Assembly (NCBI GenBank): GCA_964616485.1
Contig: CAZTRB010000005.1
Location: forward strand, 11,592 to 75,591
Length of the DNA: 64,000 nt
Direction: 5' to 3'
DNA from: an uncultured Muribaculaceae bacterium
GTDB lineage: Bacteria; Bacillota_I; Bacilli_A; RF39; UBA660
The notes below the pieces were generated by a model. The model did no database searches, was not told the origin of the DNA, and saw only the letters and a program-made list of their open reading frames with translations. The first letter of the stretch is position 1. Each line of letters starts with the position of its first letter. A program made the position numbers and the translations under genes. Shown here piece after piece: positions 8,701-41,964 of the stretch.

Positions 8701-9196
8701 TAAAAGGAACTTTACCTTCCATCGTAGAAAGATAACTAACGTTACTTAAATCCATTACTTCTTGAACAGAAGAGGATTGTAATATAGCAAACCCCGTCGT
8801 TCTAGCAGCATAGATATCTTGATGATCTCCTAAAATAGAAAGCGAATGACTCGCTAAAGAACGAGAAGCTACATTTATAACACAAGGAAATAACTGCCCT
8901 GCAATCTTATACATATTAGGAATCATCAACAAGAGTCCTTGAGAAGCCGTAAATGTCGTAGCTAAGATACCATTTTGAAGAGCACCATGAACCATAGCGA
9001 TAGCACCGGCTTCACTCTCCATCTCGACTACTTTTATTTTCGATCCCCAATAATTCTTCTTCCCTTCAGCACTCCAACTATCGACATTCTCAGCCATAGG
9101 TGATGCGGGTGTTATCGGATATATACCGGCTAGTTCAGAAAAATTATAAGCGACTAAACTACACGCTTCATTACCATCCATTATCTTATACATCAA
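5765..9196 (-). CDS. nifJ: pyruvate:ferredoxin (flavodoxin) oxidoreductase, single-chain PFOR
   Basis: N-terminus MDGNEACSLVAYNFSELAGIYPITPASPMAE; two CxxCxxCxxxCP ferredoxin motifs (CIMCNMCAFVCP, CTGCGLCVNICP); TPP-binding GDGW region; 1143 aa. Confidence 0.92.
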   Translation of the reverse strand: MMYKIMDGNEACSLVAYNFSELAGIYPITPASPMAENVDSWSAEGKKNYWGSKIKVVEMESEAGAIAMVHGALQNGILATTFTASQGLLLMIPNMYKIAGQLFPCVINVASRSLASHSLSILGDHQDIYAARTTGFAILQSSSVQEVMDLSNVSYLSTMEGKVPFINTFDGFRTSHELQKIEVIDFQKVKELINEDALKEFRSRALSINNLTRGTNTNDDIYFQLSEARNKYYDNLPDIVNEYMKKINAITGRDYKPFNYYGAKDATKIIVAMGSICETIKETINSLKGEKIGLIEVHLYRPFSSKYLLDVLPDTVTDIAVLSRTKEHGTSEPLYLDISNVIRETGKNIKVVGGRYGLSSKDTDPSLINAVYKFLDRKDKFNGFTIGIKDDLTNLSLDPITLTVDNETKEVVIYGFGSDGMVSVSKDIIKIVGNNTDSYVQGYFEYDSKKSGSVTKSHMRFASKPIKSTYYVNKPCLVVCTKDSYLSKFDMLDDIVENGTFIVNTFKDDKELFKALSNKDRAIIKNRNIKVYSLNANKISNEVGLGNKINTIMATAIFKVSKLIDFEIAFKEIKKALETLFKNKGTEVIEKNNRAIDRALETLTIVDFSGFDDIEDNKSSFVGKSIFDLINERRGYSIPVSEFEKIVDGSFVGGRSKEEKRNITDTVPVYNEENCIMCNMCAFVCPHGVIRPFLLNEEEVENAPESLKAKLIDANIKDQNLKYAIGVNIEQCTGCGLCVNICPGKKGEKALVMTAIEQINDEETLRETDYLFNVVTEKQVMTLNTVKGSQFATPKFEYSGACAGCGETPYIKLLTQLFGEELVIANATGCSSIYGGSVPSTPYSVPWANSLFEDNAEFGFGMRVSEVIHKDKIKMILRDNLSKINDNDLEVVNSYLEDTNLENSKRLYEIVDSLNIPELLEEKDFIKTKSFWIIGGDGWAYDIGYNGLDHVLASNEDVNILVLDTEMYSNTGGQASKSSKYGGIAKFAASGKETHKKNLAKMAMTYPHVYVATVSLGANMMQTIKAFNEAKNHKGPSLIIAYSPCIVQGIKAGMGTSIEEEKKATESGYFPIFRYNPTTEEFSLDSKADFDKYEEFLDGENRYAALNKVNPEKKDDFYDINKREAIRVYEHYESLKEDKKITE

Positions 9197-10142
9197 TATT
9201 TCTCCTTTTTAATCCCTTACTCATCTCTTTAATAATGTATATAGGTCTTTTCTTTATCTCTGAATATACCTTCGATAAATAGGCTCCTATTATTCCTAAT
9301 GAGAATAGTTGAACTCCTCCGACGAAGAAGATTAACCAAAATACTAATAACACACTACTTATAGAGACATCTATTATTAAGTTTACCACAATTATAACGA
9401 ATAAGACAAACGCTACGAGAGAAAATAATAGACTCATTACAAAAGGAATCATCAAAGGAACTGTTGAAAAACCAATTATTCCCTCGAAAGCATACACTAA
9501 GAGATTCCAAAAACTCCACTTAGTATTACCTGCCACTCTCTCGACATTCTTATACTCTAACCACTTAGTCTTAAATCCAACGAAAGTAAACAGACCTTTA
9601 GAATAACGATTATACTCTCTCATCGTCAAGATTGAATCGACTACTTGTCTTCTCATCAATCTAAAGTCTCTAGCTCCATCGACCATCTCTGTCTTAGAAA
9701 TTTTATTTATCAACTTATAAAATCTTCTAGCAAAGAAACTCCTAATAGGTGGTTCTCCTTTTCTAGTCGTCCTCCTACAAGCTACGACATCGTAGTCCTC
9801 CTCTTTAATAAGACGATACATCTCTTCTAAAAGACTAGGTGGATCTTGTAAATCAGCATCAAGCGTCGCTACATAATCTCCAGTCGCATGTTCTAATCCC
9901 GCTAAAACAGCACCTTCTTTACCAAAGTTTCTAGAAAGAGAAATATACTCTACTCTCTTATCTTTCTTCTTTAATTCTTTAATATATTCTAAAGTATTAT
10001 CTTTAGAACAATCATTGACAAAGACAAATTCAAAATTAACTTTCTTTAAGTTTTCTGCTATCCTAGTTACTTCTTCATAAAAGTAAGGAAGCGACTCCTC
10101 TTCATTATAACAAGGAACGACTAACGATATTTTTTCTCTCAT
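9186..10142 (-). CDS. family 2 glycosyltransferase, GtrB/CsbB-like polyprenyl-phosphate sugar synthase with C-terminal TM helices
   Basis: LVVPCYNEEESL...NDCSKDNT...DADLQDPP (DxD region) and two C-terminal TM helices, typical of bactoprenol-P glycosyltransferases. Confidence 0.85.
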   Translation of the reverse strand: MREKISLVVPCYNEEESLPYFYEEVTRIAENLKKVNFEFVFVNDCSKDNTLEYIKELKKKDKRVEYISLSRNFGKEGAVLAGLEHATGDYVATLDADLQDPPSLLEEMYRLIKEEDYDVVACRRTTRKGEPPIRSFFARRFYKLINKISKTEMVDGARDFRLMRRQVVDSILTMREYNRYSKGLFTFVGFKTKWLEYKNVERVAGNTKWSFWNLLVYAFEGIIGFSTVPLMIPFVMSLLFSLVAFVLFVIIVVNLIIDVSISSVLLVFWLIFFVGGVQLFSLGIIGAYLSKVYSEIKKRPIYIIKEMSKGLKRRNIDV

Positions 10143-10143
10143 A

Positions 10144-11592
10144 CTATTCTTTAATCCTTCTTTCTATTTTTTCAAAGATTCCCATATACCTAACATAAGC
10201 GTCTTTTTCCAAAGGAATCTCATAATACTTTTTAAGTTCTTTTAACTCTTCACTATTTATCGGGTTAAACTTATAGACTAGTTTTAAAGGGTTAGCTTTT
10301 ATCTCGATAGTATTTTGATTAGATTCTAACTGTTCTTTAATGTATTCTCCCCTAGTCTTCTCAAAATAAGATATTAACAAGAAAGAAGAGATATAATAAA
10401 TTACTAACAAGCTCGTTAATAAGACGACTCTCTTACTAACATTAAATTCTTTATTACTAACAAATATTGCTAAGGAACTAATTAAAAATAAAGTAAAGGC
10501 ATAATTATTACCAAAGTCCCACTCCTGTGATATAAGACTAAAAAGACTAACTGCAATCGAGAAGATAAATAAGACATTTATTAATCTCTTACTCTTTAAA
10601 TCTTTACTATAATAGTGAAGACTTCTAATCAATAAATAAAAATATAATAAGTAATAAAAAGCATAATACCAATTCTCTACTGCAAAGAAACCGTTATAAC
10701 GATTAATTACTAAAGTTAAAGATACTGGCGAATAGAAAGAGAAATTATAAATAAAAGAAAAATACAAGATGATATTAAATAAGACGATAAGTATTCTAGA
10801 GTAAATCCCTTTAAGTCTTTCCCCTAAATAAAAGTTAATCGGTATCGTCGACAATATTATTAATAATATATTTCTAGAAAAAGTATTTTCGATAAAATCG
10901 GGAATACTATTAAAGACATAGTTTATATCGAGAATAAAAATACTCTCTTTAAAGAAACTAAAGACGAATAATAAAGTCAAGAGATGAAAGATTACTACTA
11001 AGAGATACTTTTTATTATAATTACATATTAAGTAAAATATATTTGCTATAACAAAAGAAATAGCGATGAAGATAGACGAGGTAATAACATAACTACCGAG
11101 AAGTATCATCATGACATAATCACGATAGTTTCTCTCTTTATCTCTTATACTAAATAGACTATAGAAATATATAAAACCTAGTAATATCGGTATCGTATAA
11201 CTAAAAGCACCACTTACAGAGACGTAATTATAAGCAAACATATCGACGCTGACTAAAAGCATTAATAAAAATGTTATCACATACATAAACTTGTTCTTTA
11301 CTATTCCTAATAGAGTGTTGGTCCTAAAGACAAACATCGAAGTAACTATCGCTATTATCAGATTAAACCAAACTTTATTATAAGAGAATATATTAATAAA
11401 AAAACCACTTATTACTCTTCCGTCTAAAATAGAAGAATTTTCTAAATTATAAGCGATCCCCTCTTTACCTAAAGAAAAAAAAGCCCAATCTATTCCACCT
11501 AATGGAGATAAAAAAGCCACTATCAAAAAGAAGAAAAAGACATATGTCGTTAACTTATATTTATAATCTATCGTTTTAATTCTATCATTCAT
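10144..11592 (-). CDS. polytopic membrane protein (~12 TM), candidate GT-C-type glycosyltransferase or oligosaccharyltransferase partner of the GtrB-like enzyme
   Basis: 482 aa almost entirely hydrophobic helices with short loops, immediately upstream of and 2 nt from the GtrB-like gene; family not assignable by eye. Confidence 0.45.
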   Translation of the reverse strand: MNDRIKTIDYKYKLTTYVFFFFLIVAFLSPLGGIDWAFFSLGKEGIAYNLENSSILDGRVISGFFINIFSYNKVWFNLIIAIVTSMFVFRTNTLLGIVKNKFMYVITFLLMLLVSVDMFAYNYVSVSGAFSYTIPILLGFIYFYSLFSIRDKERNYRDYVMMILLGSYVITSSIFIAISFVIANIFYLICNYNKKYLLVVIFHLLTLLFVFSFFKESIFILDINYVFNSIPDFIENTFSRNILLIILSTIPINFYLGERLKGIYSRILIVLFNIILYFSFIYNFSFYSPVSLTLVINRYNGFFAVENWYYAFYYLLYFYLLIRSLHYYSKDLKSKRLINVLFIFSIAVSLFSLISQEWDFGNNYAFTLFLISSLAIFVSNKEFNVSKRVVLLTSLLVIYYISSFLLISYFEKTRGEYIKEQLESNQNTIEIKANPLKLVYKFNPINSEELKELKKYYEIPLEKDAYVRYMGIFEKIERRIKE

Positions 11593-11600
11593 AAAGTCTC

Positions 11601-12092
11601 CTATAACTTATCTATGTAATCCTCTATTAATTTTACCATATTTTTAGTATTACTCTCATACTTTTTAGGTTTAAAAGTCTTAGCTTTTTCTAAAGTCTTA
11701 GAAAGTTTATTAAGATCTTTAAGAGGAAGTATATATTTCTTAGAACTTAATTGTTCGATAATCTCTAATTGATGATCGTTATCATGCTCTTTAAACTTCT
11801 TTAGTCTAGGAGCAGCTATTACAACTTTATTATATTCTAATCCCTGTAAGATAGAACCTACTCCACCATGAGTAATTAATAAACTACAATCTTTAATCAT
11901 CTTAGCAAACTCTTCACGAGAAATAAAATCAAAGATTTTCATATTAGGACTCTCATACTTAGTATGACCTGCTTGGACAATTACTTCTTCTTTAATAGTT
12001 CCTTTCTTTATCTCTCTATCTATTTGCTCTAATAAACGTTTAAACTCTTTATCTTGAGTTCCAAGAGTAACTAATATCATTAGTAAATCCAC
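11601..12092 (-). CDS. Alg13-like glycosyltransferase catalytic subunit (GT28 C-terminal domain, Cps14G/EpsF-like)
   Basis: LVTLGTQDKEFKRL...LITHGGVGSILQGLEYNKVVIAAPR matches the GT28 C-terminal fold; overlaps the Alg14-like gene by 13 nt. Confidence 0.75.
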   Translation of the reverse strand: MDLLMILVTLGTQDKEFKRLLEQIDREIKKGTIKEEVIVQAGHTKYESPNMKIFDFISREEFAKMIKDCSLLITHGGVGSILQGLEYNKVVIAAPRLKKFKEHDNDHQLEIIEQLSSKKYILPLKDLNKLSKTLEKAKTFKPKKYESNTKNMVKLIEDYIDKL

Positions 12093-12550
12093 CCCCCATA
12101 AACCGCTTTAGGATAAAGTTTTAACATACTCTCCCATTGAACGATAAATAAATCGGCAAAGAGATAGATTAACCTTCCCGTAATCGTCTTACTCTTACTA
12201 TTAGCAAGCGTCTCGATATAAATAATCTTACTACCGAATATTTTACCGACACAACACATTGGTCCTGCCGTATGAGCACCAGTAGTTATGATTACTTTAG
12301 GTCTAATCTTAAAGTAAAGAAAGAGACTCTTAAAAGAATTATATATTAACTTAAAGGGATAAGTTAATAAATGAGCCTTAGTTCCATAGACTAAATACTT
12401 TACTTTTCCCGGATATTTATCTTTTAAAGTCATATTAGATTTAGTCTTTTCTGTTATTATATAGTGATCATATTTCTCAAACATCGAAGACAACTTCATC
12501 ATCTCAGATAAATGACCACCAGTAGAAGATATAAATAAAACCTTTTTCAT
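12080..12550 (-). CDS. Alg14-like glycosyltransferase accessory subunit (Cps14F/PssD-like)
   Basis: MKKVLFISSTGGHLSEM...IITTGAHTAGPMC...IIYIETLANSKSKTITGRL typical of Alg14-like proteins. Confidence 0.75.
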   Translation of the reverse strand: MKKVLFISSTGGHLSEMMKLSSMFEKYDHYIITEKTKSNMTLKDKYPGKVKYLVYGTKAHLLTYPFKLIYNSFKSLFLYFKIRPKVIITTGAHTAGPMCCVGKIFGSKIIYIETLANSKSKTITGRLIYLFADLFIVQWESMLKLYPKAVYGGWIY

Positions 12551-12557
12551 AAACCAC

Positions 12558-13772
12558 CTATTTTAGTATTTTAAACCAATCTTTCTCTATATTTTTAGCT
12601 AAGTACTTTTGAGATATTTTAAGATTCTCTTTACTTAGTTTTTCTCTATACTTATTATCTTTTAAAATAAGAACGATTTTTTCTTTTAAAAGGCTTAAGT
12701 CTCTATTAGGTATCAAAACATCACTATTATCTTCTAAGACTTCACATATTCCCTTAGCACTATCGAAACCAATAACAGGAAGTCCATAACTAGCAGCTTC
12801 GATTACGACTAAACCGAAAGACTCCGAGAATGATGTAGTTACGAAAAGAGAACTATCTAACATATACTTTTCTATCTTATCTTTAGATAAAAATCCGAGT
12901 AATTCGACATTATCATTTAAAGATAATTTCTTAATTTGTTTCTCTAAATTACTTCTTTCAGACCCATCACCGATTAGGTAAAGCTTAATATTAGGTATAT
13001 TTTCTCTAACCAAAGATAATACTTCTAAAAGGTCAGAGTGTCCTTTTTCTAGAGATAATCTTCCGACATTGATTATGTTATTTGTCTTTAATAGAGATTT
13101 TTTCTTCGGCAATTCGTCTAAGACATTGGGTATATAAAGACACTCTACATTCGTCTTATCTTTATAAAAGTCTCTGAGTTCTCTAGATACTAAGATAAAA
13201 TAAGAAAATCCTTTAATAGAAGATACTAACTTTCTAACATATTTTTTATCGTTATTATGATAGTTGTGATCGGTAACAATTTTTACAATATGTCTATTAC
13301 CATAAGTAGATACTAATCTATTATGGAAGGTCCTAGTAGTAATTACATACTTGCTATTTATTTTAATAATAGCATTAATATTTAAAAGACTTTTTTTAAA
13401 TAAGAGAACAAGAGCTATATATGCTTGTTTTAATATACCAAAGATATTCTTATTAGTTAATTCTTTTTTAAACTCTTCTCTATTAGGTTTAGAATCAATT
13501 AAATATTTTATCTTAATCTTCTTATCAAAATAAAACGCGGGTTGTTCTAGCAACTTATAAGTAGTTATAATCTCTATCTCAAACTTTTTATCTAGCATCT
13601 TACAAAGAGAAGACAAGTACTTTTCGATACCACCATATCCTAAATGAAGAGCTAATATCGTTATCTTATTTTCTTTTAGTTTTCTCTTGTTATATTTTAA
13701 AATTAAAAACACTAAAAATAAGATAATAACAAAAGACAATAATACTAATAACAGTTGCAATATATCACACAC
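12558..13772 (-). CDS. family 4 glycosyltransferase (GT-B, glycosyl transferase group 1) with N-terminal TM
   Basis: C-terminal GT-B motif NVGRLSLEKGHSDLLEV...TSFSESFGLVVIEAASYGLPVIG (E-x7-E region). Confidence 0.8.
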   Translation of the reverse strand: MCDILQLLLVLLSFVIILFLVFLILKYNKRKLKENKITILALHLGYGGIEKYLSSLCKMLDKKFEIEIITTYKLLEQPAFYFDKKIKIKYLIDSKPNREEFKKELTNKNIFGILKQAYIALVLLFKKSLLNINAIIKINSKYVITTRTFHNRLVSTYGNRHIVKIVTDHNYHNNDKKYVRKLVSSIKGFSYFILVSRELRDFYKDKTNVECLYIPNVLDELPKKKSLLKTNNIINVGRLSLEKGHSDLLEVLSLVRENIPNIKLYLIGDGSERSNLEKQIKKLSLNDNVELLGFLSKDKIEKYMLDSSLFVTTSFSESFGLVVIEAASYGLPVIGFDSAKGICEVLEDNSDVLIPNRDLSLLKEKIVLILKDNKYREKLSKENLKISQKYLAKNIEKDWFKILK

Positions 13773-13813: not shown

Positions 13814-13847
13814 AGCAAGAAAAAAGATATCTTTTTCAAGATATCTT
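13814..13847 (-). terminator. intrinsic terminator after the giant pilin-like gene
   Basis: Two copies of the self-complementary decamer aagatatctt (13824-13833, 13838-13847) form a 10-bp stem with loop tttc; T-run on minus strand (plus agcaagaaaa); stem includes stop codon. Confidence 0.55.
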
Positions 13848-16800
13848 ATCCCCAATTTTCACAACCACAAGCTGCTGTTCTACAAGAATTATTTCCTCCT
13901 ACACAAGTACTATAAGTGTATAGACAATTATTCCATCCACATGCACTATGTTGACAATAATAGTATCCGGCACATCCACAGCAATCATTATAACAGGTTG
14001 CAGCTTCCTCACCAGAAACACAACATGTTGTCGAAGTTTTATACCATGTTTGGCCACCCGAACTAGGTTTGCTACTTGCACACTTAGTTCCGCACCCATA
14101 ACCTCCTGTGTTTTGGTAACATTCATAGATATTTCCTTTAGTTTTACAATATGTTCCGCAACAAGAGTAACTAGTACATCTTTTATTTCCAGTACATCCG
14201 CATCCGGCAGTATAACAAGAATTATATCCTCCAACACAAACGGACGGGTTACCTGTTAAACAAGAATTCCATCCACAATTAGCATGTTGACAACTCTTAT
14301 TGGTAACACAACTCGATGTTATAGAACAAGTTCCTGTATTACCCGCTCCATCTGTAACCGTGTATGTCTTTGTACCTTTAACATTTGAATCATTATATGT
14401 AGCTGGAGATACTCCACTTGCATTATCAGAAGTTGTAACTTTTACGGTTATTCCATTAGCTCCATTCGCTGTTTTAACAGCAGTACAAGTAGGATTAACT
14501 GTATCTCTTTTTATCGTAAATACATTAGATGCAGCAGATGCATTACCTGCATTGTCAATTGATCTTACATAGAAATTCCAATTCCCATCCCAGTTTATCG
14601 TCCATGGATTTGACATTGCTGTCCAATTTGCAGCATCATGACTATACTGATAACTAGCAATTCCAGAACCAGTTCCGTCCGAAGATGATGCAGTTATTAC
14701 AACATTAGATTTTGTCCAAGTGCCTGAAGTATAAGAACCTAGATTGATCGTTGGTTTTGAAGGTTTTGTTGCATCTCTCTTTATTGTTACGACATTTGAA
14801 TTATCACTTATGTTACCAGATTTATCTATAGCCCTTACATAAACGTTCGTAGATATATCTGAACTAATTGTCCATGGATTCGACATCGTCGTCCATCCCG
14901 ACGTCCCATTAGTACTATATTCATATCTATCTAAGTTAGTATCCGATGAACTCGCTGTTATGACAATATTTTGATTTGACCATGTATTAGATGTATATGT
15001 AGTACCATCTGCTTTTTTCAAGGTTAAAGTTGGTTTCGACGGTTTCGTCGCATCTCTTTTAACATTAAAGACGTTTGACACATCACTTATATTACCAGCA
15101 CCATCAGTAGACCTTACATAGTAATTACTTTCGACATCTGTACTAATTGTCCATGGATTTGCCATATTTGTCCATCCTGAAGTTCCATTAACACTATATT
15201 CATATTTACTTATTCCTGAAATATTATCAGTTGAACTTGCCGTTACGACTACATTGCCAGAGGTCCATGTCCCTGAAGTATAAGAACCTAAATTGATCGT
15301 CGGTTTCGATGGTTTAGTAGCATCCCTTTTGATAACTACGGCATTAGATACATCACTAACATTTCCTGAGGAATCGATTGCTCTTACATAGATGTTTGTC
15401 GAAGTATCCCAGTTAATCGTCCATGGATTTGTCATAGCCATCCATCCCGATGTTCCGGTCGTACTATATTGATATCCAGCTAAGTTATCATCAGTTGAAC
15501 TTGCTGTAATGATTATATTTTGATTTGACCATGTATTAGATGTATAAGTAGAATTGTCTGCTTTCTTCATTGTCAATGTTGGTTTTGATGGTTTCGTCGC
15601 ATCTCTTCTAACAATAAATGGATTTGAATTATCACTTACGTTACCAGCACCATCAGTCGATCTGACATAGTAAGTTTTATCGGTATCGAAGTTTATCGTC
15701 CATGGATTTGACATCGTCGTCCATCCTGAAGTTCCATTGTTACTATATTCGTATTTGCTTATTCCCGAAATATTATCAGTTGAACTTGCCGTTACGACGA
15801 CATTACCAGAAGTCCATGTACCAGAAGTATACGAACCTAGATTAATCGTCGGCTTCGATGGTTTAGTACCATCTATTTTTACCGTTTGGTTGTTCGGACA
15901 AGTAACACAGTTTCCTGCTCTATCACAAACCTCGCCCGGTCCAGCCGTCGTCGTATTTATATCACTAGTATAAGGTTTAGTAATTGTCGTATTTACACAA
16001 CCACTACCACTATCACTACAAGTACCAATTATATTTACAGTCGTCTTACTCCATGCAGAACTTCCACCACTACTTACACAAGTTGGTTTCGTCGTATCGA
16101 TCGTATCGACGACTACCGCTTTATTAGTAACATGTCCAGCTTGGTCCTTAACCCACACATAATATGTACCATTATCAGAAGCTATATTTGGAACACCAAT
16201 TCCAAAACTAGTTCTTGCCGATATAGCGGTAAATGTCGGTTGTGTCGTCGAACTCTTATTTATACCGTAACCGATTATTCCTGAATTAGTATCTGTTCCG
16301 GTAAATACTATCGTTCCGTTAAGTCCGTCTTGACCAGTATCGATTATCGTCGAGTACGCTACATCCCAACTTACTGAAGTACCAGAACCCGTCAAGTAAA
16401 CGTGTCCGAAAGTCGAGAACGTTCCCGAACTACCCGCTTTTTGAATATAGATATATTCTGCCCAATCTCCAGTTCCAGCTTGTGGAGTGATCCAGTAGAC
16501 GCTTGAACCTGTACCGGTAGAATTAGAAGCTCTTTGAATAGTATACCCAACTGGTATCTTTGCAATTATTCTATGAGCATATACAGCATTAGCTCTCGAA
16601 GTTACAGTTTGAACATAACCTCCTAATCCAGGAGAACTGACACCATTTGTCGTTATTCTCATAACGTATGAACCATATGGGTTAGATTGAGCTACTCTAG
16701 CGTGAGTAACAGTACCATTTCCACTATTATTATATACGCTAAAGTTATTTGTCCCAGAAGCAAACGTCGGATCTTTGAATAACGGAGTCCCTGATATTGC

Positions 16801-18897
16801 TTCTGATATAACCGGAGCATTTTTATCTATTCTTACGATTTGGTCAGCCTGGCAAGTAGTACAGTTTCCTGCATTATCACAAACTTGTCCAGGTGATTCA
16901 TTAGTCGAATTTATATTAGAAGTATATGTTTTCGTTACCGTCGAATTCACACAACCACTATCAGCGTCATTACACGTTCCAGTAATCGTGACATTCGTCG
17001 TTTTCCATGTAGCGCTTCCACCACTATTTATACATGTTGGTGGTTCGTTATCGGCAGTTATCGTTTGGTGATACCATCCGCCACTATTTGGCGATTGAGT
17101 TATGACGTTACCAGCATTATCAACTAGTCTCGTATAAACGGTATATACTCCTCCAGGTAAACTAACAACGTGTTTATTTTGTCCAGTAATAGATGTAATG
17201 CCACCTACAGCAACACCGTTTCTTTCCATCTTGACTTGGAACTCTTTAATACCACTCAAATTATCAGCAACCGTAATTGTCAACGTTTGATTAGCACTAT
17301 ATACTCCCGTTAATAAGCTATAACTTGCAGTAGGAGCCGTCTTGTCGATTCTAGAAATCGTTACTGATGAAGGATCAGATGATAAACCGACAACGTTTCT
17401 CGTACGAACTTGAGCATTCGTTACATTTGACGAATAAATATTATAATTTGTCGATTGCCAAGAAGCGCCATCATTAAACGAATACTCAGTCGTTCTAACT
17501 AATCCAGCTCTTGGAATCAAGTTAACTTTTACATTGTTCTTAGTCCAGATACCTGGAGAAGCAGCGACTAAATCAATTCTAGAAACATTGTAAGATACAC
17601 CACTTAGTGCTCCTAAAACTAATCTAAAGTTAGAGTATTGTCCAACCGAAGGTAAAATAAACTCTATGTCTCTAGTACCTTGAATCATTAATGCTGATAC
17701 TGAGAGTTCATTCCCATTTTGATCTTTAAAGTAGACTCTACCCGTCGTCGTCGTTGGAATATTAGTATTTAAAGTCACAGTTAATTTCTTAATACCATTA
17801 AATGTCGGATACGAAGCAGTACCAAACGTTATAACTGGGTTTGTCGTAGTCGTCGTTAGTATTGTACCCGCTAAATTTAACCCCGAAAGAGTATATTCAT
17901 ATTGGTTAGGGAACAATTGATATGCATACTCAACATCAAATTCTGGTTTTGGAACACCCACTCTTACGTCGATTGAACAAATCCCCTCATTACCCGCTTC
18001 GTCTTTAACATAACCTACGACTGTCGTAAGTCCCATATCTAATTTAAGACTATCTTTTTTATTATAATCAATATTCTTTATACTAGTACCAAGTCCATAA
18101 GTTAAAAGTCCACTATCAGCATCATCTTTAGTATCGAACTTAACATAAACGTCTCCCGAATACCACCCTAACGCTTCTAAGTTTCCGCCATCTCTAATAA
18201 GTGTACAAGTTGGAGGAGTCTTATCGACATATACTTTTACCGGACAACTAGTTTGATTTCCACTCTTATCAACTATATTAATAAAACTCTCAGTAGTAGT
18301 CGTACCAAATGTCTTAGAGAATCTAGCTAAACGACAACCACTAGTTTGGTCACTACAACCAACACTAATTGTTCTATTTTCCTTAGTCCATGTAGTAGAT
18401 TCACCTATGACACTACCACATACCGGATTATCATTATCAGATTCATACTTAGAACAAGCCGAACCTTCAGTAGAATAATTTTCACAATACAAACACGCTC
18501 TATATTCGTAGTCACCACTAACTTTGCTTACCTCAACATAACTAAGTAAACTATTACAAAATCCATCTGTTTCCGGATCTTTTAATTCATCAGAGTAACC
18601 TTTTTCAATAACATCACTCAAATAGACAATAGATCTATCTCCATCGCCTGGTAAATTACAAGTGTAATCATTATTAGCAATACAATCAACAACCATGTTA
18701 TTCGTAGCTGTTTGCATATTCTTTTCATAAGCTAAATAAGTATTATCCTTACTACTTCCAATATAATTAGAAATAGCCGGAACTGTAATGATTGCCAATA
18801 TAGCAATTATCACGATAACGGCGATTACTTCTATTAAAGTAAACCCTTTCTTTTTCTTGGCTTTTTCCAAAATTTTACTAACAGTTTTCTTTCGCAT
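13846..18897 (-). CDS. giant (1683 aa) modular type IV pilin-like / pseudopilin-like surface protein: class III prepilin signal, Cys-containing modules, 5 tandem Ig-like repeats, Cys-rich C-terminal module
   Basis: MRKKTVSKILEKAKKKKG then FTLIEVIAVIVIIAILAIITVPA (prepilin peptidase site G/F, Glu at +5, hydrophobic alpha1 helix); AAGGAG RBS 8 nt upstream of ATG 18895-18897; promoter TTGACT-17-TAAAAT at 18932-18960 lies inside the ORF-track N-terminal extension, so start at 18897 preferred. Confidence 0.8.
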   Translation of the reverse strand: MRKKTVSKILEKAKKKKGFTLIEVIAVIVIIAILAIITVPAISNYIGSSKDNTYLAYEKNMQTATNNMVVDCIANNDYTCNLPGDGDRSIVYLSDVIEKGYSDELKDPETDGFCNSLLSYVEVSKVSGDYEYRACLYCENYSTEGSACSKYESDNDNPVCGSVIGESTTWTKENRTISVGCSDQTSGCRLARFSKTFGTTTTESFINIVDKSGNQTSCPVKVYVDKTPPTCTLIRDGGNLEALGWYSGDVYVKFDTKDDADSGLLTYGLGTSIKNIDYNKKDSLKLDMGLTTVVGYVKDEAGNEGICSIDVRVGVPKPEFDVEYAYQLFPNQYEYTLSGLNLAGTILTTTTTNPVITFGTASYPTFNGIKKLTVTLNTNIPTTTTGRVYFKDQNGNELSVSALMIQGTRDIEFILPSVGQYSNFRLVLGALSGVSYNVSRIDLVAASPGIWTKNNVKVNLIPRAGLVRTTEYSFNDGASWQSTNYNIYSSNVTNAQVRTRNVVGLSSDPSSVTISRIDKTAPTASYSLLTGVYSANQTLTITVADNLSGIKEFQVKMERNGVAVGGITSITGQNKHVVSLPGGVYTVYTRLVDNAGNVITQSPNSGGWYHQTITADNEPPTCINSGGSATWKTTNVTITGTCNDADSGCVNSTVTKTYTSNINSTNESPGQVCDNAGNCTTCQADQIVRIDKNAPVISEAISGTPLFKDPTFASGTNNFSVYNNSGNGTVTHARVAQSNPYGSYVMRITTNGVSSPGLGGYVQTVTSRANAVYAHRIIAKIPVGYTIQRASNSTGTGSSVYWITPQAGTGDWAEYIYIQKAGSSGTFSTFGHVYLTGSGTSVSWDVAYSTIIDTGQDGLNGTIVFTGTDTNSGIIGYGINKSSTTQPTFTAISARTSFGIGVPNIASDNGTYYVWVKDQAGHVTNKAVVVDTIDTTKPTCVSSGGSSAWSKTTVNIIGTCSDSGSGCVNTTITKPYTSDINTTTAGPGEVCDRAGNCVTCPNNQTVKIDGTKPSKPTINLGSYTSGTWTSGNVVVTASSTDNISGISKYEYSNNGTSGWTTMSNPWTINFDTDKTYYVRSTDGAGNVSDNSNPFIVRRDATKPSKPTLTMKKADNSTYTSNTWSNQNIIITASSTDDNLAGYQYSTTGTSGWMAMTNPWTINWDTSTNIYVRAIDSSGNVSDVSNAVVIKRDATKPSKPTINLGSYTSGTWTSGNVVVTASSTDNISGISKYEYSVNGTSGWTNMANPWTISTDVESNYYVRSTDGAGNISDVSNVFNVKRDATKPSKPTLTLKKADGTTYTSNTWSNQNIVITASSSDTNLDRYEYSTNGTSGWTTMSNPWTISSDISTNVYVRAIDKSGNISDNSNVVTIKRDATKPSKPTINLGSYTSGTWTKSNVVITASSSDGTGSGIASYQYSHDAANWTAMSNPWTINWDGNWNFYVRSIDNAGNASAASNVFTIKRDTVNPTCTAVKTANGANGITVKVTTSDNASGVSPATYNDSNVKGTKTYTVTDGAGNTGTCSITSSCVTNKSCQHANCGWNSCLTGNPSVCVGGYNSCYTAGCGCTGNKRCTSYSCCGTYCKTKGNIYECYQNTGGYGCGTKCASSKPSSGGQTWYKTSTTCCVSGEEAATCYNDCCGCAGYYYCQHSACGWNNCLYTYSTCVGGNNSCRTAACGCENWG
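13849..14328 (-). other. Cys-rich C-terminal module (~160 aa, >30 Cys) with internal duplication
   Basis: CQHANCGWNSCLTGNPSVCVGGYNSCYTAGCGC ... CQHSACGWNNCLYTYSTCVGGNNSCRTAACGC; CC and CGC clusters. Confidence 0.7.
14506..15873 (-). repeat. five in-frame tandem coding repeats (~273 bp, 90-92 aa each) alternating two subtypes
   Basis: Protein units D[AG]TKPSKPT...TASS[ST]D...GTSGW...NPWTI...YVR[AS][IT]D.[AS]GN[VI]SD..N....[IV][KR]R repeated 5 times; DNA-level recurrence of gtccatggatttgacat near 14594, 14876, 15420, 15705. Confidence 0.85.
15862..16089 (-). repeat. 6-Cys module copy 2 (PTCVSSGGSSAWSKTTVNIIGTCSDSGSGCVNTTITKPYTSDINTTTAGPGEVCDRAGNCVTC)
   Basis: Same Cys spacing as copy 1; sits directly before the tandem Ig-like repeats. 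Confidence 0.7.
16813..17040 (-). repeat. 6-Cys module copy 1 (PTCINSGGSATWKTTNVTITGTCNDADSGCVNSTVTKTYTSNINSTNESPGQVCDNAGNCTTC)
   Basis: ~75-aa module repeated again at 15862-16089 with recognisable DNA similarity. Confidence 0.7.
18826..18897 (-). other. class III (prepilin-type) signal peptide and N-terminal pilin helix
   Basis: Basic 18-aa leader ending in Gly followed by FTLIE and 20 hydrophobic residues. Confidence 0.8.
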
Positions 18898-18931
18898 AAT
18901 AAAGCTCCTTGTATTATCTTTTATATATAAC

Positions 18932-18960
18932 ATTTTAATATCTTTATACATAATAGTCAA
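18932..18960 (-). promoter_or_regulatory. candidate promoter of giant pilin-like gene (TTGACT-17-TAAAAT)
   Basis: Minus-strand ttgact (plus agtcaa 18955-18960), 17-nt spacer, taaaat (plus atttta 18932-18937); about 30 nt upstream of RBS/ATG. Confidence 0.4.
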
Positions 18961-19105: not shown

Positions 19106-21121
19106 ATGAAGAGATTTTTATTCGTGATTCTTTTGATATTGCTTCTTTTTAATAGTGGAACAGCACATGCAGAAATTATTAAGACTGGTCGGGCTATAGC
19201 CGATGTTGGGCTTAGAATTAGAGCTACTCCCTCTACTAGCGGAACACAATTAGGAACGATACCCTATGGAACGATAGTTAGAATCATCGGTGAAGCGAAT
19301 GGTTCGGGATGTAACGATCCTTGGTTTCAAGTAATTTACTCTACTGGTAATAGTAATATAAACGGTTATTCTTGTTCTACTTATATAACGGAAATTACGG
19401 AGTATGATACTGAAGAGAATACGCCTACAACACCACCAGTAAATAGCGAGGACTTCGAAGCCTACTTAACTTCACAAGGATTCCCAGAAAGCTACAAAGT
19501 CAAACTAAGAATTTTACACGAACAACATCCTAATTGGATATTTGTCGGTATAAAAGTAAGAGAGTCTTGGCAAACGTCTTTAAATCTTCAAGGCGAAGAT
19601 GGAAGAAGTACATTAAATGTTAATGCGGCAAGAAAGGCTTTGGGGCAAGAGGGATATTTATCGACTGCAGCGGGACACTATAACTATGAGACTGACACTT
19701 TTATTCCTAAAGATGGTACTTATTGGTTTCAAGCTAACTCAGATGCTATTGGATATTACCTTGACCCAAGAAACTTCATGGACGAGAAAAATGTTTTCAT
19801 GTTCGAAAGTCTTTTACAAAACGATGCTATTCATACTAAATCAGTAGTCGACGGGATCTTGTCGAGTGACTTCATGAAACAATATTCTAATCATTTCATG
19901 AAAGGTGCAAGAGACTACAACGTTTCTGCTACGCACTTAGCATCACTATCTAGACAAGAAGTAGGAATTACTAACGGTAACATTGTTACTAACGGAAAAG
20001 CCGGAGTATTATCAGACGGAGTTAACTATAACGGTTACTATAACTTTTTTAATATCGGAGCATCATCATCGGGAGATCCGAAGTTAAAATCGTTACAAAG
20101 CGCTAAAGCTCGCGGCTGGAATTCACCTGAGAAATCAATCGTTGGTGGAGCGGCTTTTATATCTAGTGGTTATATTAATGCCGGACAATACACGGCTTAT
20201 CTTCAAAAGTTTAACGTCGATCCTAATGCTACTAAAGGAATATGGCATCAGTATATGACTAACATAGCGGCATTATCTTCGCCGGCAATTACGACATATA
20301 ACTCATATAATAATCTCGGTTTCATAAACCATTCATTTATATTCTCGATTCCAATATTTACTAATATGCCAGAAAGCACTTCGTTACCTCCCTTAGGTAA
20401 CCCAAATAACTGGCTAAAAGAAATAAAGATAAATGGTATCGCTTTATCTAGTTTCTACGGTGGTACCACTAATTACACCATCGATATTCCTTACGAGGAA
20501 GAGATTACAGTAGAGGCTAAAAAAGTAAATAGTAACGCTACTGTATCAGGAACTGGAACAAAAGCCTTAACGGAAGACAAAACCACTTTAACGATTAAAG
20601 TCACTGCTCAAAACGGAAGCGTTAAAAACTATACGGTAACAGTTAATCGTGGGATAAAAGACGATCCTAACTTAGAGATAGATCTTCTATTAAAAGATGT
20701 CTTAACTGATAGCAAATACAAATACGATAGTAAAAATCTTTGGGGAATAACTCTAGGAACTAGCGTTAAGAGTCTTACTAGTAAAATAAAAGGAAAATAT
20801 AAAACAGTAAGTGTAAATATAAAAAATAAAGACGGCAATACTAAAACAGACGGTGTCATAGTTACAGGAGATAAAGTAACGATAACGACTAAACAAGAAT
20901 CTACTACTATCGAAGTAATAATCTTTGGTGATACTAATGGAGACGGATACATCTCGGCAATCGACATCTTAAGCGCTCAAAAACATATCCTTGGATATAC
21001 TACTCTTTTAGGAACTAGTTTCAAAGCGGCAGACATAAATAAAGACGGTGTCATATCAGCTTATGACTTACTACAATTTCAAAAACACGTCTTAGGTTAT
21101 ACTAATATAAGCCAATCATAG
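19106..21121 (+). CDS. secreted peptidoglycan hydrolase: signal peptide, SH3b, GH73 N-acetylglucosaminidase domain, cadherin-like beta-sandwich domain, C-terminal type-I dockerin
   Basis: Signal peptide MKRFLFVILLILLLFNSGTAHA; SH3b GRAIADVGLRIRATPSTSGTQLGTIPYGTIVRII; glucosaminidase-like core aa ~230-400; cadherin-like NNWLKEIKINGIALS...TIKVTAQNGSVKNYTVTVNR; dockerin FGDTNGDGYISAIDILSAQKHILGYT...AADINKDGVISAYDLLQFQKHVLGYT. Confidence 0.8.
   Translation: MKRFLFVILLILLLFNSGTAHAEIIKTGRAIADVGLRIRATPSTSGTQLGTIPYGTIVRIIGEANGSGCNDPWFQVIYSTGNSNINGYSCSTYITEITEYDTEENTPTTPPVNSEDFEAYLTSQGFPESYKVKLRILHEQHPNWIFVGIKVRESWQTSLNLQGEDGRSTLNVNAARKALGQEGYLSTAAGHYNYETDTFIPKDGTYWFQANSDAIGYYLDPRNFMDEKNVFMFESLLQNDAIHTKSVVDGILSSDFMKQYSNHFMKGARDYNVSATHLASLSRQEVGITNGNIVTNGKAGVLSDGVNYNGYYNFFNIGASSSGDPKLKSLQSAKARGWNSPEKSIVGGAAFISSGYINAGQYTAYLQKFNVDPNATKGIWHQYMTNIAALSSPAITTYNSYNNLGFINHSFIFSIPIFTNMPESTSLPPLGNPNNWLKEIKINGIALSSFYGGTTNYTIDIPYEEEITVEAKKVNSNATVSGTGTKALTEDKTTLTIKVTAQNGSVKNYTVTVNRGIKDDPNLEIDLLLKDVLTDSKYKYDSKNLWGITLGTSVKSLTSKIKGKYKTVSVNIKNKDGNTKTDGVIVTGDKVTITTKQESTTIEVIIFGDTNGDGYISAIDILSAQKHILGYTTLLGTSFKAADINKDGVISAYDLLQFQKHVLGYTNISQS
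20924..21103 (+). other. type-I dockerin module (two Ca-binding F-hand repeats)
   Basis: Duplicated D.N.DG.I.A.D...(K)H.LG segments matching dockerin consensus GDVNGDGKVNSTD...LKRYILK. Confidence 0.8.
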
Positions 21122-21130
21122 GAGGACTTT

Positions 21131-22546
21131 ATGAAAAAAATCTTTAAACCATTTACAATGGTTTTCCTTTTTACAGTGATGTTTTTGTTTAATAATAACG
21201 TCTTGGCAGCTAACTTAAATGTCTCGATAACCTCGAGTACTAGTAGAGCGGTAGTTGGTAACAATATTACTTATACGGTTAGAGTGTCTTCTAATGCTAA
21301 ATTTGGTAATATTCATTATAGATTAGAATATGACACTTCTAAGTTAACTCATGTAAGTGGAACACTAAATAATTTTGATTTAAATGTTATCGATAAATAT
21401 TCTGCTACTTACACTTTTACTTTTAGAGCAAAAGCAAGTGGTAATGCTAGAGTAACGTTCGTAATCAACGAAGCCTTAGAATTAAATAACAATTCTTTTA
21501 ATTATAATACTAGAACCAATAAAGATATAACGATCATAACTCAACAACAATTAGAAGCTAGCTATAGTAAAAACAACTACCTATCATCTTTAAAAATAGA
21601 TAATTTTGAAATGACACCGGCTTTTAATAAAGATACTTTAGAATACTCGATAGAATTAGAAAACGATGTTAAATCAATAAATATTAGCGGTACTAAAGCA
21701 GATTCAACAGCATCAGTCGAAGGTTTGGGTGCACATGAATTAATAGAAGGACCAAATAAAATAAATATAAAAGTTACTGCCCAAAACGGTGCCTCTAGAA
21801 CATATACGATAAATGCAACGGTAAAAGAATTAAATCCCATTATCGTAACTGTCGACGGCAAAGAATATAATGTCGTTAGAAAAAAAGACCTAATAAAAAA
21901 ACCTAATAGCAAATACGAAGAGACGATTATACAAATAAATGAAGAAGATGTCCCAGCTTTCATAAACGAGACGACTAAAGTAACATTAATCGGGCTTAGA
22001 GATGAAGAGGACAACATTTCTTTATTTAGTGTTAAAAATGATACGTATATTCCTTACCAAGAATTCGCTTTTAGTAGTATAATATTTACGGAAGAAAATT
22101 TAGACGATCTTCCTAAAGGTTATACTAAAACTAAATTAAAACTCGAAGAAGTAGAAATAGACGCTTATCAAGATAACTCTAACTTAAATTTCTACCTAAT
22201 AAAAGGAGTGAACATTGAAACGGGAATAACTTCCCTATATCAATATGATAGTAAAGAAAACACTCTTCAAATATATAATGATTCATTAGCTAAACAAAAT
22301 AAGGAATTAACTAATAAGAATAATATTTATCTTTATACTATAATTGGTCTAATAGCACTCATAGCTATATCTTCCGGAACGATATTAGTAAAGACTTTAA
22401 AAAATGAAAAACCTAAAATAAAAAAAGAAGAGAAGACCGACAAAAAAGTCAAAGAAAAAGTAGAGGAACCGAAAGAACCTATCATAGAAGAAGAGAGTCT
22501 AACAAAACAAATAAAGAAAATGAAAAAAAATAAAAAACAATCTTAA
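21131..22546 (+). CDS. type-I membrane protein with signal peptide, cohesin-like N-terminal module, cadherin-like domain, C-terminal TM helix and Lys/Glu-rich cytoplasmic tail
   Basis: Signal MKKIFKPFTMVFLFTVMFLFNNNVLA; NLNVSITSSTSRAVVGNNITYTVRVSSNAKFGNIHYRLEYDTSKLTHVSG resembles cohesin (..YDp.vLe.vsv..G); cadherin-like YLSSLKIDNFEMTPAFNKDTLEYS...INIKVTAQNGASRTYTINATV; TM IYLYTIIGLIALIAISSGTILV; 10-nt gap to upstream dockerin gene. Confidence 0.55.
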   Translation: MKKIFKPFTMVFLFTVMFLFNNNVLAANLNVSITSSTSRAVVGNNITYTVRVSSNAKFGNIHYRLEYDTSKLTHVSGTLNNFDLNVIDKYSATYTFTFRAKASGNARVTFVINEALELNNNSFNYNTRTNKDITIITQQQLEASYSKNNYLSSLKIDNFEMTPAFNKDTLEYSIELENDVKSINISGTKADSTASVEGLGAHELIEGPNKINIKVTAQNGASRTYTINATVKELNPIIVTVDGKEYNVVRKKDLIKKPNSKYEETIIQINEEDVPAFINETTKVTLIGLRDEEDNISLFSVKNDTYIPYQEFAFSSIIFTEENLDDLPKGYTKTKLKLEEVEIDAYQDNSNLNFYLIKGVNIETGITSLYQYDSKENTLQIYNDSLAKQNKELTNKNNIYLYTIIGLIALIAISSGTILVKTLKNEKPKIKKEEKTDKKVKEKVEEPKEPIIEEESLTKQIKKMKKNKKQS

Positions 22547-22561
22547 TATACTGGAGGAATT

Positions 22562-24667
22562 ATGAAAAAGAAAAAGATCAAATACCAAAATATATTCACA
22601 ATACTTTGTATCTTAAGCAGCTTATATCTAATCCAATCTATCTACTTATTTTCACAAATAGAAACAGTTATTAGATACTCTGTAATTGGTATTTTAGTTC
22701 TTTTCGACTTCTTTATATTAATTAAGATGTTTTTCTTAAAGACTAAAAAAACTATTATATATATTATAGTCTTAGTCTTTTTTAGTGGAATATATATATT
22801 CTTAGGATACAATTTAAATAGAATATACTCTTATTTTACTAACTTAAATAAGACGATTACTTATTCGACTAGTTTAGTTACCTTAAAAAGTACTAAAGAT
22901 GTCGATCTAATAACACTTAAGAATGCTAATATAGGTCTTATCGATGATCCGACTTCTGAAGATGGACACATCTTAGCACAAGAGATAATAAAGAAAGAGA
23001 GTTTATCTAAAAACAATAATATTATCTATAGGCATTCATATACTGAACTTATATTAGATTTATATGATAAAGACTTAGACTATATTTTTCTTCCTAGTTC
23101 TTATGTCGATATCTTTAGTACGATCGAAGGTCTTGAAGATATAGAAGATAAAATTAAGACTATTCTAACGACAGAGATGGAAAAGACTAAAGAAGAGGCA
23201 CAACTATTAGGAGATCCTAAGAATATAGATGAACCATTCACGATGTTATTAATAGGTATTGATTCAACGGCTGATGGTATTCAAAATGCCGACTCATTTA
23301 ATGGAGATTCTCTTATGGTACTTACTTTTAATCCTAAGACGATGACTGCTACGATGTTAAGTATACCTAGAGATACGTATGTTCCAATAGCATGCTTTCC
23401 AAATAAAATAGAAAATAAGATAACTCATTCTGCTTCTCGTGGTACAAGTTGTGTTATAAATACTATTCAAAACTTATTGGATATAAAAATAGACTATTAT
23501 ATGAAGATTAACTTTACTGGTCTAGTCGAACTAGTCGATGCCGTCGGTGGAGTCGAAGTCGATGTTCCTTATAGTTTTTGTGAACAAAATAGTAAGAGAA
23601 AATTCGGTAATAGTACTATCTATGTAAAAGAAGGTTTAAGGACACTTAATGGTGAAGAGGCCTTAGCATTATCTAGAAATAGAAAGAATAATTATGAATA
23701 TTGTTCTAAAGAATGGACTAAGGGAAATAGAAGTGACTTTGTAAGAGCAGAGAACCAACAAAAAGTAGTTCAAGGAATATTAAATAAAGTAAAAGGTTAT
23801 ACTTCTATTAACAAAATAGAAGAGTTATTAAAAATAGTCTCTAAAAACTTAGATACTAATATGAGTGAGAAGACGATTTTCTCATTCTATAATATTGCAA
23901 AGGATGTCATGATATCATCGTCTAATTCTGATATACTATCTATTCAAAGATTAGAGATAGTCGGATGGGGACAAACGATATACGATGAGACATCTAAGTT
24001 ACAGTTGTGGAATTATGTTCCAAATAAGAGAAGTACCGAAGATGTAAAAGAAGCTATTAAAATAAATTTAGGACTGAAAAAACATGAGTTAATCAAGACT
24101 TTCACTTATTCTTGGAAAGAAGAATATACTCAAAAGATTCCAGGTAAAGGGCCTTATAGTATATATACTACTTATGACTTGCTAAAAGACTTTACTAACA
24201 TGAATATAACGGATGTCGAGCTATGGGCTGAAAAAAACGACATTACTTTAGTCATAGAAGAAGTAGAAAAGGTCGGTTACAAAAATGGTACAGTCGTTAA
24301 TCAAGAGTATCCAGTTAATAAGAGATTAGATTTAATACCCGATAGAACATTAAAAATAGAAGTAGTCAAGAATAAAGATACTAAAATAGACTGTTTAAAA
24401 GACGAGGAAAACATTATTTGTCTAATACCTGACTTTATCGGTAAAACTAAGAAAGACGTAGCTCTTTGGGGAAATAAGTTCTCTAATCTAGTAGATGTTA
24501 AATATGTAGAAGTGGAGTCTGAAGAAGAAGAGAATACGATAATAGATCAAACGATTAAAGGTATTACGATAAAAGAATTACTTGAGAATAAAGAGAGTAT
24601 CACTTTTACTATCGTTAAGAAAAAAGAAATAATACCACCTATCGAAGAAGAAATGGAAGAAGAATAA
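22562..24667 (+). CDS. LytR-CpsA-Psr (LCP) family cell-wall glycopolymer transferase with extended C-terminal region (701 aa)
   Basis: N-terminal TM helices; LCP core LLIGIDSTADG...GDSLMVLTFNPKTMTATMLSIPRDTYVPIAC...HSASRG...YYMKINFTGLVELVDAVGGVEVDVPYSF; ~280-aa C-terminal extension. Confidence 0.8.
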   Translation: MKKKKIKYQNIFTILCILSSLYLIQSIYLFSQIETVIRYSVIGILVLFDFFILIKMFFLKTKKTIIYIIVLVFFSGIYIFLGYNLNRIYSYFTNLNKTITYSTSLVTLKSTKDVDLITLKNANIGLIDDPTSEDGHILAQEIIKKESLSKNNNIIYRHSYTELILDLYDKDLDYIFLPSSYVDIFSTIEGLEDIEDKIKTILTTEMEKTKEEAQLLGDPKNIDEPFTMLLIGIDSTADGIQNADSFNGDSLMVLTFNPKTMTATMLSIPRDTYVPIACFPNKIENKITHSASRGTSCVINTIQNLLDIKIDYYMKINFTGLVELVDAVGGVEVDVPYSFCEQNSKRKFGNSTIYVKEGLRTLNGEEALALSRNRKNNYEYCSKEWTKGNRSDFVRAENQQKVVQGILNKVKGYTSINKIEELLKIVSKNLDTNMSEKTIFSFYNIAKDVMISSSNSDILSIQRLEIVGWGQTIYDETSKLQLWNYVPNKRSTEDVKEAIKINLGLKKHELIKTFTYSWKEEYTQKIPGKGPYSIYTTYDLLKDFTNMNITDVELWAEKNDITLVIEEVEKVGYKNGTVVNQEYPVNKRLDLIPDRTLKIEVVKNKDTKIDCLKDEENIICLIPDFIGKTKKDVALWGNKFSNLVDVKYVEVESEEEENTIIDQTIKGITIKELLENKESITFTIVKKKEIIPPIEEEMEEE

Positions 24668-39059: not shown

Positions 39060-39073
39060 CTTGACCTCCTATT

Positions 39074-41948: not shown

Positions 41949-41964
41949 TTAATCACATCCTTTA

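Follow-up and report, generated by a model that had tools for sequence, protein, structure and literature searches.

A cysteine-rich, probably disulfide-stapled module at the C terminus of a giant type IV pilin-like protein

Modular type IV pilins combine an N-terminal pilin motif with at least one extra domain that is not specific to pilus biology (PMC8179133). A published survey describes hundreds of modular pilin architectures, many of them with modules of unassigned function (PMC8179133). Modular pilins are thought to explain many functions of simple filaments; most of the grafted modules are uncharacterized. The modules are believed to be displayed at the tip of the filament, where they would serve adhesion, as in Streptococcus sanguinis PilB (vWA module) and PilC (lectin module), and further members of this group are CofB, ComZ, and GspK (PMC8179133, PMC9934059). 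A protein that resembles them is encoded in the 64,000-nucleotide stretch of contig CAZTRB010000005.1 analyzed here (the window). The list of open reading frames (ORFs) and their translations place its gene on the minus strand at 13846..18897, stop codon included, and the product is a giant type IV pilin-like (modular pilin) protein of 1683 amino acids (aa). In agreement with the definition of Raynaud et al. 2021 (PMC8179133), it combines N_methyl with Big_7 and OmpL47-type beta-barrel repeats. Its last 159 residues (aa 1525-1683; 13849..14325, minus strand) form a module with 28 cysteines and no Pfam, NCBIfam, or PDB match. The type of carrier is known; the module is absent from the libraries and the literature searched. 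With moderate confidence, we interpret the protein from its sequence as a giant modular pilin with a distal, disulfide-stapled stalk that would present a variable binding head.

The carrier begins with a class III (prepilin) signal peptide, MRKKTVSKILEKAKKKKG followed by FTLIE, in which a short basic leader ending in Gly, Phe at +1, and Glu at +5 are all present (leader at 18844..18897, minus strand). Pfam N_methyl matched with 29.3 bits (cutoff, 21.2) and TIGR02532 of NCBIfam with 27.8 bits (cutoff, 16.3). In phmmer alignments, residue 1 of the solved mature pilins Geobacter PilA-N, PilA, MshA, S. sanguinis PilE1, and PpdD aligned to F19, and on the basis of these matches cleavage is predicted after G18. 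The mature N terminus, FTLIEVIAVIVIIAILAIITVPAISN (18766..18843, minus strand), corresponds to alpha1-N of solved pilins and is the sole hydrophobic helix; in a Kyte-Doolittle scan of the whole carrier with 19-residue windows, only the aa 19-44 region exceeds 1.6. Neither an LPx[TSA]G motif nor, past residue 60, a hydrophobic segment occurs in the carrier, which also has no C-terminal membrane segment. Because of its prepilin N terminus, single hydrophobic segment, and lack of LPXTG, the carrier is, as judged from these features, a type IV pilin-like protein and not a sortase-anchored adhesin. The latter candidate was rejected, as there is no LPXTG with a following hydrophobic segment and the C terminus reads ...CGCENWG. 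A preliminary description of the window had placed the module at the distal tip of an adhesin; an extracellular position at the end farthest from the anchor is retained here, and the picture of a typical wall-anchored protein is not.

That description had drawn attention to a cysteine-dense stretch at 13849-14328. The coordinates are right and the coding strand is minus: reverse translation gives CSITSSCVTNKSCQHANCGWNSC...CGCENWG, which includes both of the peptides quoted there, and stop codons are present in the stretch on the plus strand. The stretch is the C terminus of ORF 13846-18960 (minus strand). It holds 29 cysteines in 160 residues (18%), slightly below the more than 30 first counted. 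One of them, C1524, lies at the GNTGTC position that closes the preceding Ig-like domain across the family, which leaves 28 for the module itself. The reverse-strand translation also contains the CC (three times) and CGC-type clusters reported earlier. Two copies of an 8-Cys unit, with the spacing C-5-C-4-C-4-C-6/7-C-6-C-4-C-1-C, flank a 73-residue middle with 12 cysteines (8 + 12 + 8 = 28). Arm 1, CVTNKSCQHANCGWNSCLTGNPSVCVGGYNSCYTAGCGC, lies at 14194..14310; the head, the 73-aa middle delimited by its Cys positions, which differs among relatives and tandem paralogs, lies at 13975..14193; and arm 2, CAGYYYCQHSACGWNNCLYTYSTCVGGNNSCRTAACGC, followed by the ENWG end, lies at 13861..13974 (all minus strand). 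Both arms are recognized from the internal repeat and the family consensus. The internal duplication is firm: the module halves align with a score of 129 compared with 60 ± 9.7 for 2000 composition-preserving shuffles (z = 7; maximum, 118), and the aligned repeats span minus-strand positions 14292-14194 and 13956-13861. An assembly or frame artifact is disfavored, since the copies differ synonymously and relatives conserve the unit; Tandem Repeats Finder detected no DNA-level tandem array in the gene. The other exported proteins in the window have 0 to 2 cysteines in 346 to 932 residues, so about one would be expected per 160 residues.

The module was compared with the model libraries Pfam and NCBIfam and with PDB sequences. 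At E ≤ 10, Pfam gave only a 12-bit Zap1_zf1 fragment (E = 0.13), NCBIfam gave no match, and phmmer against PDB sequences returned nothing below E = 0.7. None of the granulin, knottin, EGF, TNFR, GCC2_GCC3, TSP1, metallothionein, and zinc ribbon profiles was matched by the module. The earlier statement that no named domain fits is consistent with these results. The suggestion of a knottin-, granulin-, or lectin-like fold found no backing in Pfam, Foldseek gave nothing significant, and the predicted local distance difference test (pLDDT) score from AlphaFold was about 30.

The cysteine motif does recur in other proteins, as had been proposed for examination. An exhaustive HMMER search with the module against 1.84 billion representative proteins returned the window protein itself, three true relatives (P0080, E = 3.5e-15; P0081, E = 3.3e-10; and P0084, E = 2e-5), and two spurious repeat proteins. 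P0085-P0091 were added by profile search, a JGI metagenome scan gave two further loci (L005 and L006), and the look-up of P0053 led to locus L007 with five tandem paralogs. The roster thus consists of P0080, P0081, P0084-P0091, P0053, and L005-L007, roughly 20 relatives found by sequence searches, and the family samples include biogas-fermenter and other metagenomes. P0053, P0011, P0013, and others share a looser likeness of the Cys-rich C terminus, which rests on motifs and spacing and not on E-values. A phmmer comparison of the module with 79 full-length matches found only itself, and a word-indexed homolog search with the module alone was empty and also failed to recover the carrier, so that it carries no weight. 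The public data contain an identical copy of the 1683-aa protein (P0001), and a single-protein scan of genome contigs found only one locus, L001 (CAZSDG010000001.1). L001 has a G+C content of 26-34% and a Bacilli-like run of genes (RuvX, YceG/MltG, U32 peptidases, GreA, trigger factor, and Lon), given which its label "uncultured Muribaculaceae bacterium" is questionable; a run of Ns marks an assembly gap within the L001 pilin gene.

A prepilin motif (GFTLIE or a close variant) opens every member whose N terminus is intact. In relatives, the module always follows a "PTC ... GNTG(T/S)C" Ig-like domain, to which the window protein conforms. In the family plan, the last Ig-like domain (PTC...GNTGxC) leads into a base strand with the pattern (Q/E)xRxxxC; the variable head then lies between an N-arm, which is built from CxxxxC(G) repeats, and a C-arm, and the tail CGCxxWGxWSxWS...C...CxxRTxY(N/Y) comes last. 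An (R)x(R)-containing entry strand, a WGxWSxWS exit segment, and then CxxRTxYN were observed in P0081, P0084, P0087, P0088, and P0089. The consensus of the 8-Cys unit is CQ[HN]xxCGW[ND]xCLTGSxTC[VK]GGxxxCxxxxCGC, and both window copies share 44-64% identity with the units of P0080, P0081, and P0084. At L007, positions 1222-22100 encode five tandem giant prepilin-like paralogs of 933, 1738, 1614, 1200, and 1165 aa with the same kind of Cys-rich module and arms and with different heads; one is cut back to the inner layer. Different heads on similar tandem paralogs suggest a diversification of the contact surface. A small ORF without a Pfam match, S26 peptidase-like by eye, lies among these paralogs. 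The module belongs to a small, previously undescribed family of arm-head-arm tip modules, probably disulfide-stapled, in uncultured anaerobic Firmicutes. In addition, the giant GFTLIE proteins P0030, P0004, P0008, and P0015 end in thrombospondin-type WxxCSxxCGGG or CxxCPxGTY (GCC2_GCC3/ephrin-receptor-like) units, and Cys-rich tips appear to be a general theme in the giant GFTLIE protein clade.

The number of cysteines after the Ig-closing Cys is even in all 20 family modules counted (13/13, then 7/7), with a range of 12 to 72; the 20 include a few close relatives, and about 15 are independent. In 7 of the 20 the count is congruent to 2 mod 4 and thus not a multiple of four. An even Cys bias is an accepted signature of disulfide use (PMC2823432). 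The even counts, 7 of which are not multiples of four, favor disulfides and disfavor Zn(Cys)4-type sites, and a metal-ligand role is improbable for the CQH His, which alternates with Asn in relatives. The preliminary description had left disulfides and metal binding side by side; a disulfide-rich fold is the best reading of the even counts, ahead of metal binding. The alternative of a metal- or sulfur-chemistry module is as follows: the cysteines could stay reduced in an anoxic habitat and chelate metal (Zn, Fe, Cu, Ni, or mineral/sulfide surfaces) or exchange with disulfides of a host or partner. The organism is apparently a strict anaerobe (PFOR, FTHFS, and acetate kinase), no Dsb-type gene occurs in the window, the CQH motifs, like the clusters of CC and Cys-Gly-Cys, look similar to metal-binding peptides, and the 28 cysteines of the window module are a multiple of four. 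However, zinc-ribbon, metallothionein, and Fe-S families were unmatched even at E ≤ 10, the family counts are always even while often failing to divide by four, the CQH His is Asn in many relatives, and regular C-x4-C ladders in two equal arms fit structural cross-links better than discrete metal sites. We consider the metal or thiol alternative unlikely.

The two arms change length together. By an automatic rule, in which an arm extends inward from either module end for as long as the Cys spacings do not exceed 9, the Cys counts of the N-arm and C-arm co-vary with r = 0.96 and their spans with r = 0.93. The counts (N-arm/C-arm) are 4/4 in L006, 8/8 in P0084, ~18/20 in P0085, 22/24 in P0081, and 29/30 in P0080; when arm boundaries were judged by eye, the match was exact in most members. 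In P0081, the arm spacings as read are near mirror images, with ...6 6 ... 7 4 4 4 7 beside the head in the N-arm and 7 4 4 4 7 ... 6 6 ... in the C-arm, which is the expectation for an antiparallel up-and-down hairpin. The P0081 head is inserted within one 8-Cys unit (CGWDSCLT-[head]-VCVGGNKTC), and window arm 1 is one residue longer at this position (LTGNPSV compared with LTGSxT); both indicate that LTGSxT is a loop or turn. The arms may form in one of two ways: each 8-Cys unit could be its own four-rung hairpin, or the two arms could ladder together. The same data bear on a possible intermolecular cross-linker, in which disulfides between copies or with other Cys-rich surface proteins would produce a covalent fiber mat or cell aggregate and not a monomeric head, much as in the terminal domains of mucin or von Willebrand factor or in keratin-associated proteins. 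The very high Cys density with its CC pairs, the module's place at the distal end of a long stalk, and the tandem arrays of some genomes, whose products could co-assemble, would suit such a role. The strictly even counts in every module, however, suggest that all cysteines can be satisfied within one chain, the co-variation of arm length within each protein points to intramolecular pairing, and multimers lack direct evidence; cross-linking is a quite unlikely explanation.

Structure predictions were made with AlphaFold2 for the last 221 aa of the window protein with 8 aligned sequences and for P0089 with 9 sequences. In P0089, the entry strands 67-82 and the C-terminal strands 185-189 and 205-214 were modeled as the base (pLDDT 75-94). 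In the window protein, the last 10 residues have a pLDDT of 69-83, and short strands occur at both module ends. Together with the Cys counts, the arm lengths and spacings, and the head insertion, these models support a chain that would leave and re-enter at one base, with the head at the far end. A third alternative is a fast-evolving, largely structureless or decaying tail without a specific role, the repeats and cysteines being slippage or duplication by-products of a low-complexity region. In its favor, AlphaFold gave no confident fold, very few proteins of related sequence exist in the searches, and the base and tail elements are missing from the window module; the ratio of nonsynonymous to synonymous substitution rates (dN/dS) is also fairly high, ~0.5, between two close relatives. 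Those relatives, L005 and P0084, have modules with 89% identity and 24 substitutions, concentrated in the N-arm, yet all cysteines are conserved, and every Cys of the 8-Cys unit is kept among proteins that are <50% identical elsewhere. Even Cys counts and arm symmetry would also be unexpected under neutral decay, and Tandem Repeats Finder gave no DNA-level array. A decaying tail is very improbable.

For the disulfide-stapled modular pilin, the following sequence of events is proposed. A prepilin peptidase would cleave after G18, as expected from family knowledge, and the single N-terminal pilin helix would hold the protein in a type IV filament, most likely at the tip, or else in the membrane. 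A long stalk would be formed by about 1400 residues, largely in modules of the beta-sandwich type. The two duplicated 8-Cys arms would be stapled by disulfides, with up to 14 bonds from 28 cysteines, which would confer rigidity and protease resistance. The chain probably exits and returns at the same base, so that the 73-residue variable head would be outermost and would serve as a ligand-binding or contact surface.

Several observations weigh against this interpretation. Neither the 64-kb window nor the surroundings of the homologs examined encode a DsbA/BdbD-, VKOR-, or thioredoxin-like protein; the thiol-disulfide oxidoreductase suggested in the preliminary description thus did not appear in the window. 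No prepilin peptidase or pilus assembly gene was found in the window or beside those homologs either. PFOR, acetate kinase, and FTHFS indicate a fermenting anaerobe, the habitat of which may be too reducing for stable disulfides. The arms and head have a pLDDT of only 25-40 in both AlphaFold models, and Foldseek comparison of both models with the PDB, a check proposed beforehand, gave no match at E ≤ 0.001 and only weak Ig/PKD-like matches to the preceding domain. The arms of P0086 are direct repeats with ~85% identity and are not mirrored, and equal arm lengths in some members could result from recent duplication and not from physical pairing. Furthermore, neither the base strands nor the WGxWSxWS/CxxRTxYN tail seen in most relatives is present in the window protein, in which GNTGTC leads directly into the arm, and the hairpin interpretation is therefore partly borrowed from those relatives. 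By comparison with the family plan, the window protein is a trimmed variant comparable to L007_1165 and P0013.

The probable start of the pilin-like gene is the ATG at 18897, which has an AAGGAG ribosome-binding site 8 nt upstream, and a promoter-like TTGACT-17-TAAAAT lies ahead of the gene at 18960-18932. A hairpin with a U-run immediately 3' of the stop codon (13815..13845, minus strand), identified from the sequence and RNA folding, is a probable intrinsic terminator; it folds with -13.2 kcal/mol (z = -4.6 compared with shuffles), and a consensus terminator scan missed it because its stem is A+T-rich. With a promoter-like site, a ribosome-binding site, and a terminator, the gene looks expressible, and it resembles a stand-alone transcription unit. 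Only 73 nt separate the stop codon from the next gene. The pilin-like gene stands alone among housekeeping and glycosyltransferase genes and is not in a pilus operon.

Between the pilin helix and the Cys-rich module lie ~1400 residues of largely beta-sandwich-type modules, of which domain matches cover only a part. Three kinds of element occur here: 6-Cys Ig-like domains, an OmpL47-type/Big_7 repeat block, and the last Ig-like domain. The repeat block (14506..15891, minus strand), part of the predicted stalk, consists of five ~90-aa beta-sandwich repeats of the OmpL47-type/Big_7 kind, each with KPSKPT (aa 1012, 1102, 1195, 1285, and 1378); it was recognized by NCBIfam NF047446, which matches the carrier at E = 9e-44 in 6 stretches, and by Pfam Big_7. 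The last Ig-like domain (DTVNPTC...GNTGTC; 14326..14505, minus strand), which precedes the Cys-rich module throughout the family, was modeled by AlphaFold with a pLDDT of about 76-94. At 15020-16910 (minus strand; aa ~663-1293), a Cys-free segment of ~250 aa (NNFSVYNNSGNG...HVYLTGSG) lies between two 6-Cys Ig-like segments that are nearly identical to each other (PPTC...TGTCxDxxSGC...VCDxAGNCxTC). The Cys-free segment has no Pfam family match and may itself be a binding module. PF26420 is among the precomputed matches of the identical public copy; it was absent from the Pfam scan performed here and could not be identified.

The window is chromosomal DNA with a G+C content of 31.6%, and it encodes RecA, RNase J/Y, RecU, DnaD, PBP, PFOR, acetate kinase, and FTHFS. 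A class B RNase P RNA of the Bacillota type (296 bits) lies at 30444-30787 (minus strand). The class B RNase P and the gene content place the source organism in the Bacillota, and it is probably an anaerobic, walled, Bacilli-like member. Directly downstream of the pilin gene, a glycosyltransferase cluster at 9186-13772 (minus strand) encodes GT4, a split Alg14-like/Alg13-like pair, and GT2, as well as a 482-aa protein without a Pfam match. The pilin-like protein is 25% Ser+Thr, and its glycosylation by the downstream cluster is conceivable; a role in wall polysaccharide is equally possible. Divergent from the pilin gene, 19106-24667 (plus strand) encodes an SH3_3 + cadherin-like + dockerin protein, a cadherin-like protein, and a LytR_cpsA_psr + PASTA protein, and the dockerin hints at cohesin-dockerin surface assemblies in the source organism. 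Farther along, 38019-43482 (minus strand) encodes a DUF5305 protein, an unusually long S26 signal peptidase (395 aa), a WXG100-like protein, and several small secreted proteins without a Pfam match, an arrangement that we take to recall SipW/TasA-type fiber loci. The possibility that the module is a radical-SAM-modified Cys-rich peptide was considered unlikely, since no such enzyme is encoded nearby.

Only very large pilin-like proteins carry the module, which is defined here solely by its layout and Cys pattern, and these proteins belong to gut and digester anaerobes that are poorly known. A more specific picture, which is possible and is put forward only tentatively, is a two-armed cystine-ladder stalk whose arms lengthen in register from 4 to ~30 Cys and raise a hypervariable head on giant type IV pilin-like proteins of uncultured anaerobic Bacillota, with a hidden oxidative-folding route implied. 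If so, the tandem paralog arrays would resemble variant surface protein families, and cysteine-excluding anaerobes would own a dedicated extracellular oxidative-folding route tied to the pilin export pathway. A disulfide ladder would be a clear exception to the exclusion of cysteine from Firmicute exoproteins, which would make a search for the oxidase worthwhile. It would also provide a handle for the adhesins of uncultured Bacillota and a compact, length-tunable, cross-linked scaffold for variable heads, of possible interest for protein engineering. If the module binds metal instead, it would be an unusual extracellular metal-binding appendage.

Compared with known modular pilins, the window protein differs in several respects. 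At 1683 aa, it is about twice the 860-residue multi-domain extreme of the survey (PMC8179133). About 1400 residues lie between its pilin helix and its terminal module, and its incorporation into a filament is a prediction. Its terminal module is Cys-rich and without a database signature, and its gene lies outside a pilus operon. Literature searches found no prior description of Cys-rich pilin modules. With granulin beta-hairpin stacks, TNFR, furin-like/GCC2_GCC3, and thrombospondin type 1 repeats, the module shares periodic close cysteines, an extracellular location, and a rod-like cross-linked design. The giant pilins retrieved with the carrier have precomputed PF07699, PF00020, PF07562, and PF00090 matches and CxxCPxG and WxxCSxxCGGG repeats. 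The RxR and WxxWxxW motifs at the base of relatives presumably recall the Trp/Arg ladder of TSP1 repeats. However, the window spacing 5-4-4-6-6-4-1 and the arm-head-arm layout belong to none of these eukaryote-type Cys repeats.

A profile of the 8-Cys unit matched 24 residues of the beta-wing (residues 70-93) of cobra group I secreted phospholipase A2 (PLA2) with E = 1.3e-3, and the Cys spacing 6-6-4-1 and the G-T-x-T-C-K-G-G core are identical to those of the unit. The PLA2-like part is the second half of the 8-Cys units, at 13861-13900 and 14194-14240 in the window. In contrast, the rest of the 119-residue chain, including the Ca-binding loop and the catalytic residues, is unmatched, and two other aligned fragments, each a few residues long, were nonsignificant. 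In PLA2, most beta-wing cysteines pair with residues elsewhere in the enzyme. Membership in the PLA2 family was rejected because the sole significant match is local and 24 residues long. The match is most likely due to chance or to local convergence on a Cys-flanked beta-hairpin, and at most it would fit with CxxGSxTC as a tight beta-hairpin between cysteines.

Among Firmicute type IV pseudopilins, ComGC, which depends on BdbDC, is the one well-known precedent that needs a disulfide. Exported proteins of Firmicutes in general show cysteine exclusion (PMC2823432), and the earlier judgment that the composition of the module is rare agrees with this rule. The carrier breaks the rule with 54 cysteines in total, 28 of them within 159 residues, compared with 0 to 2 in its exported neighbors.

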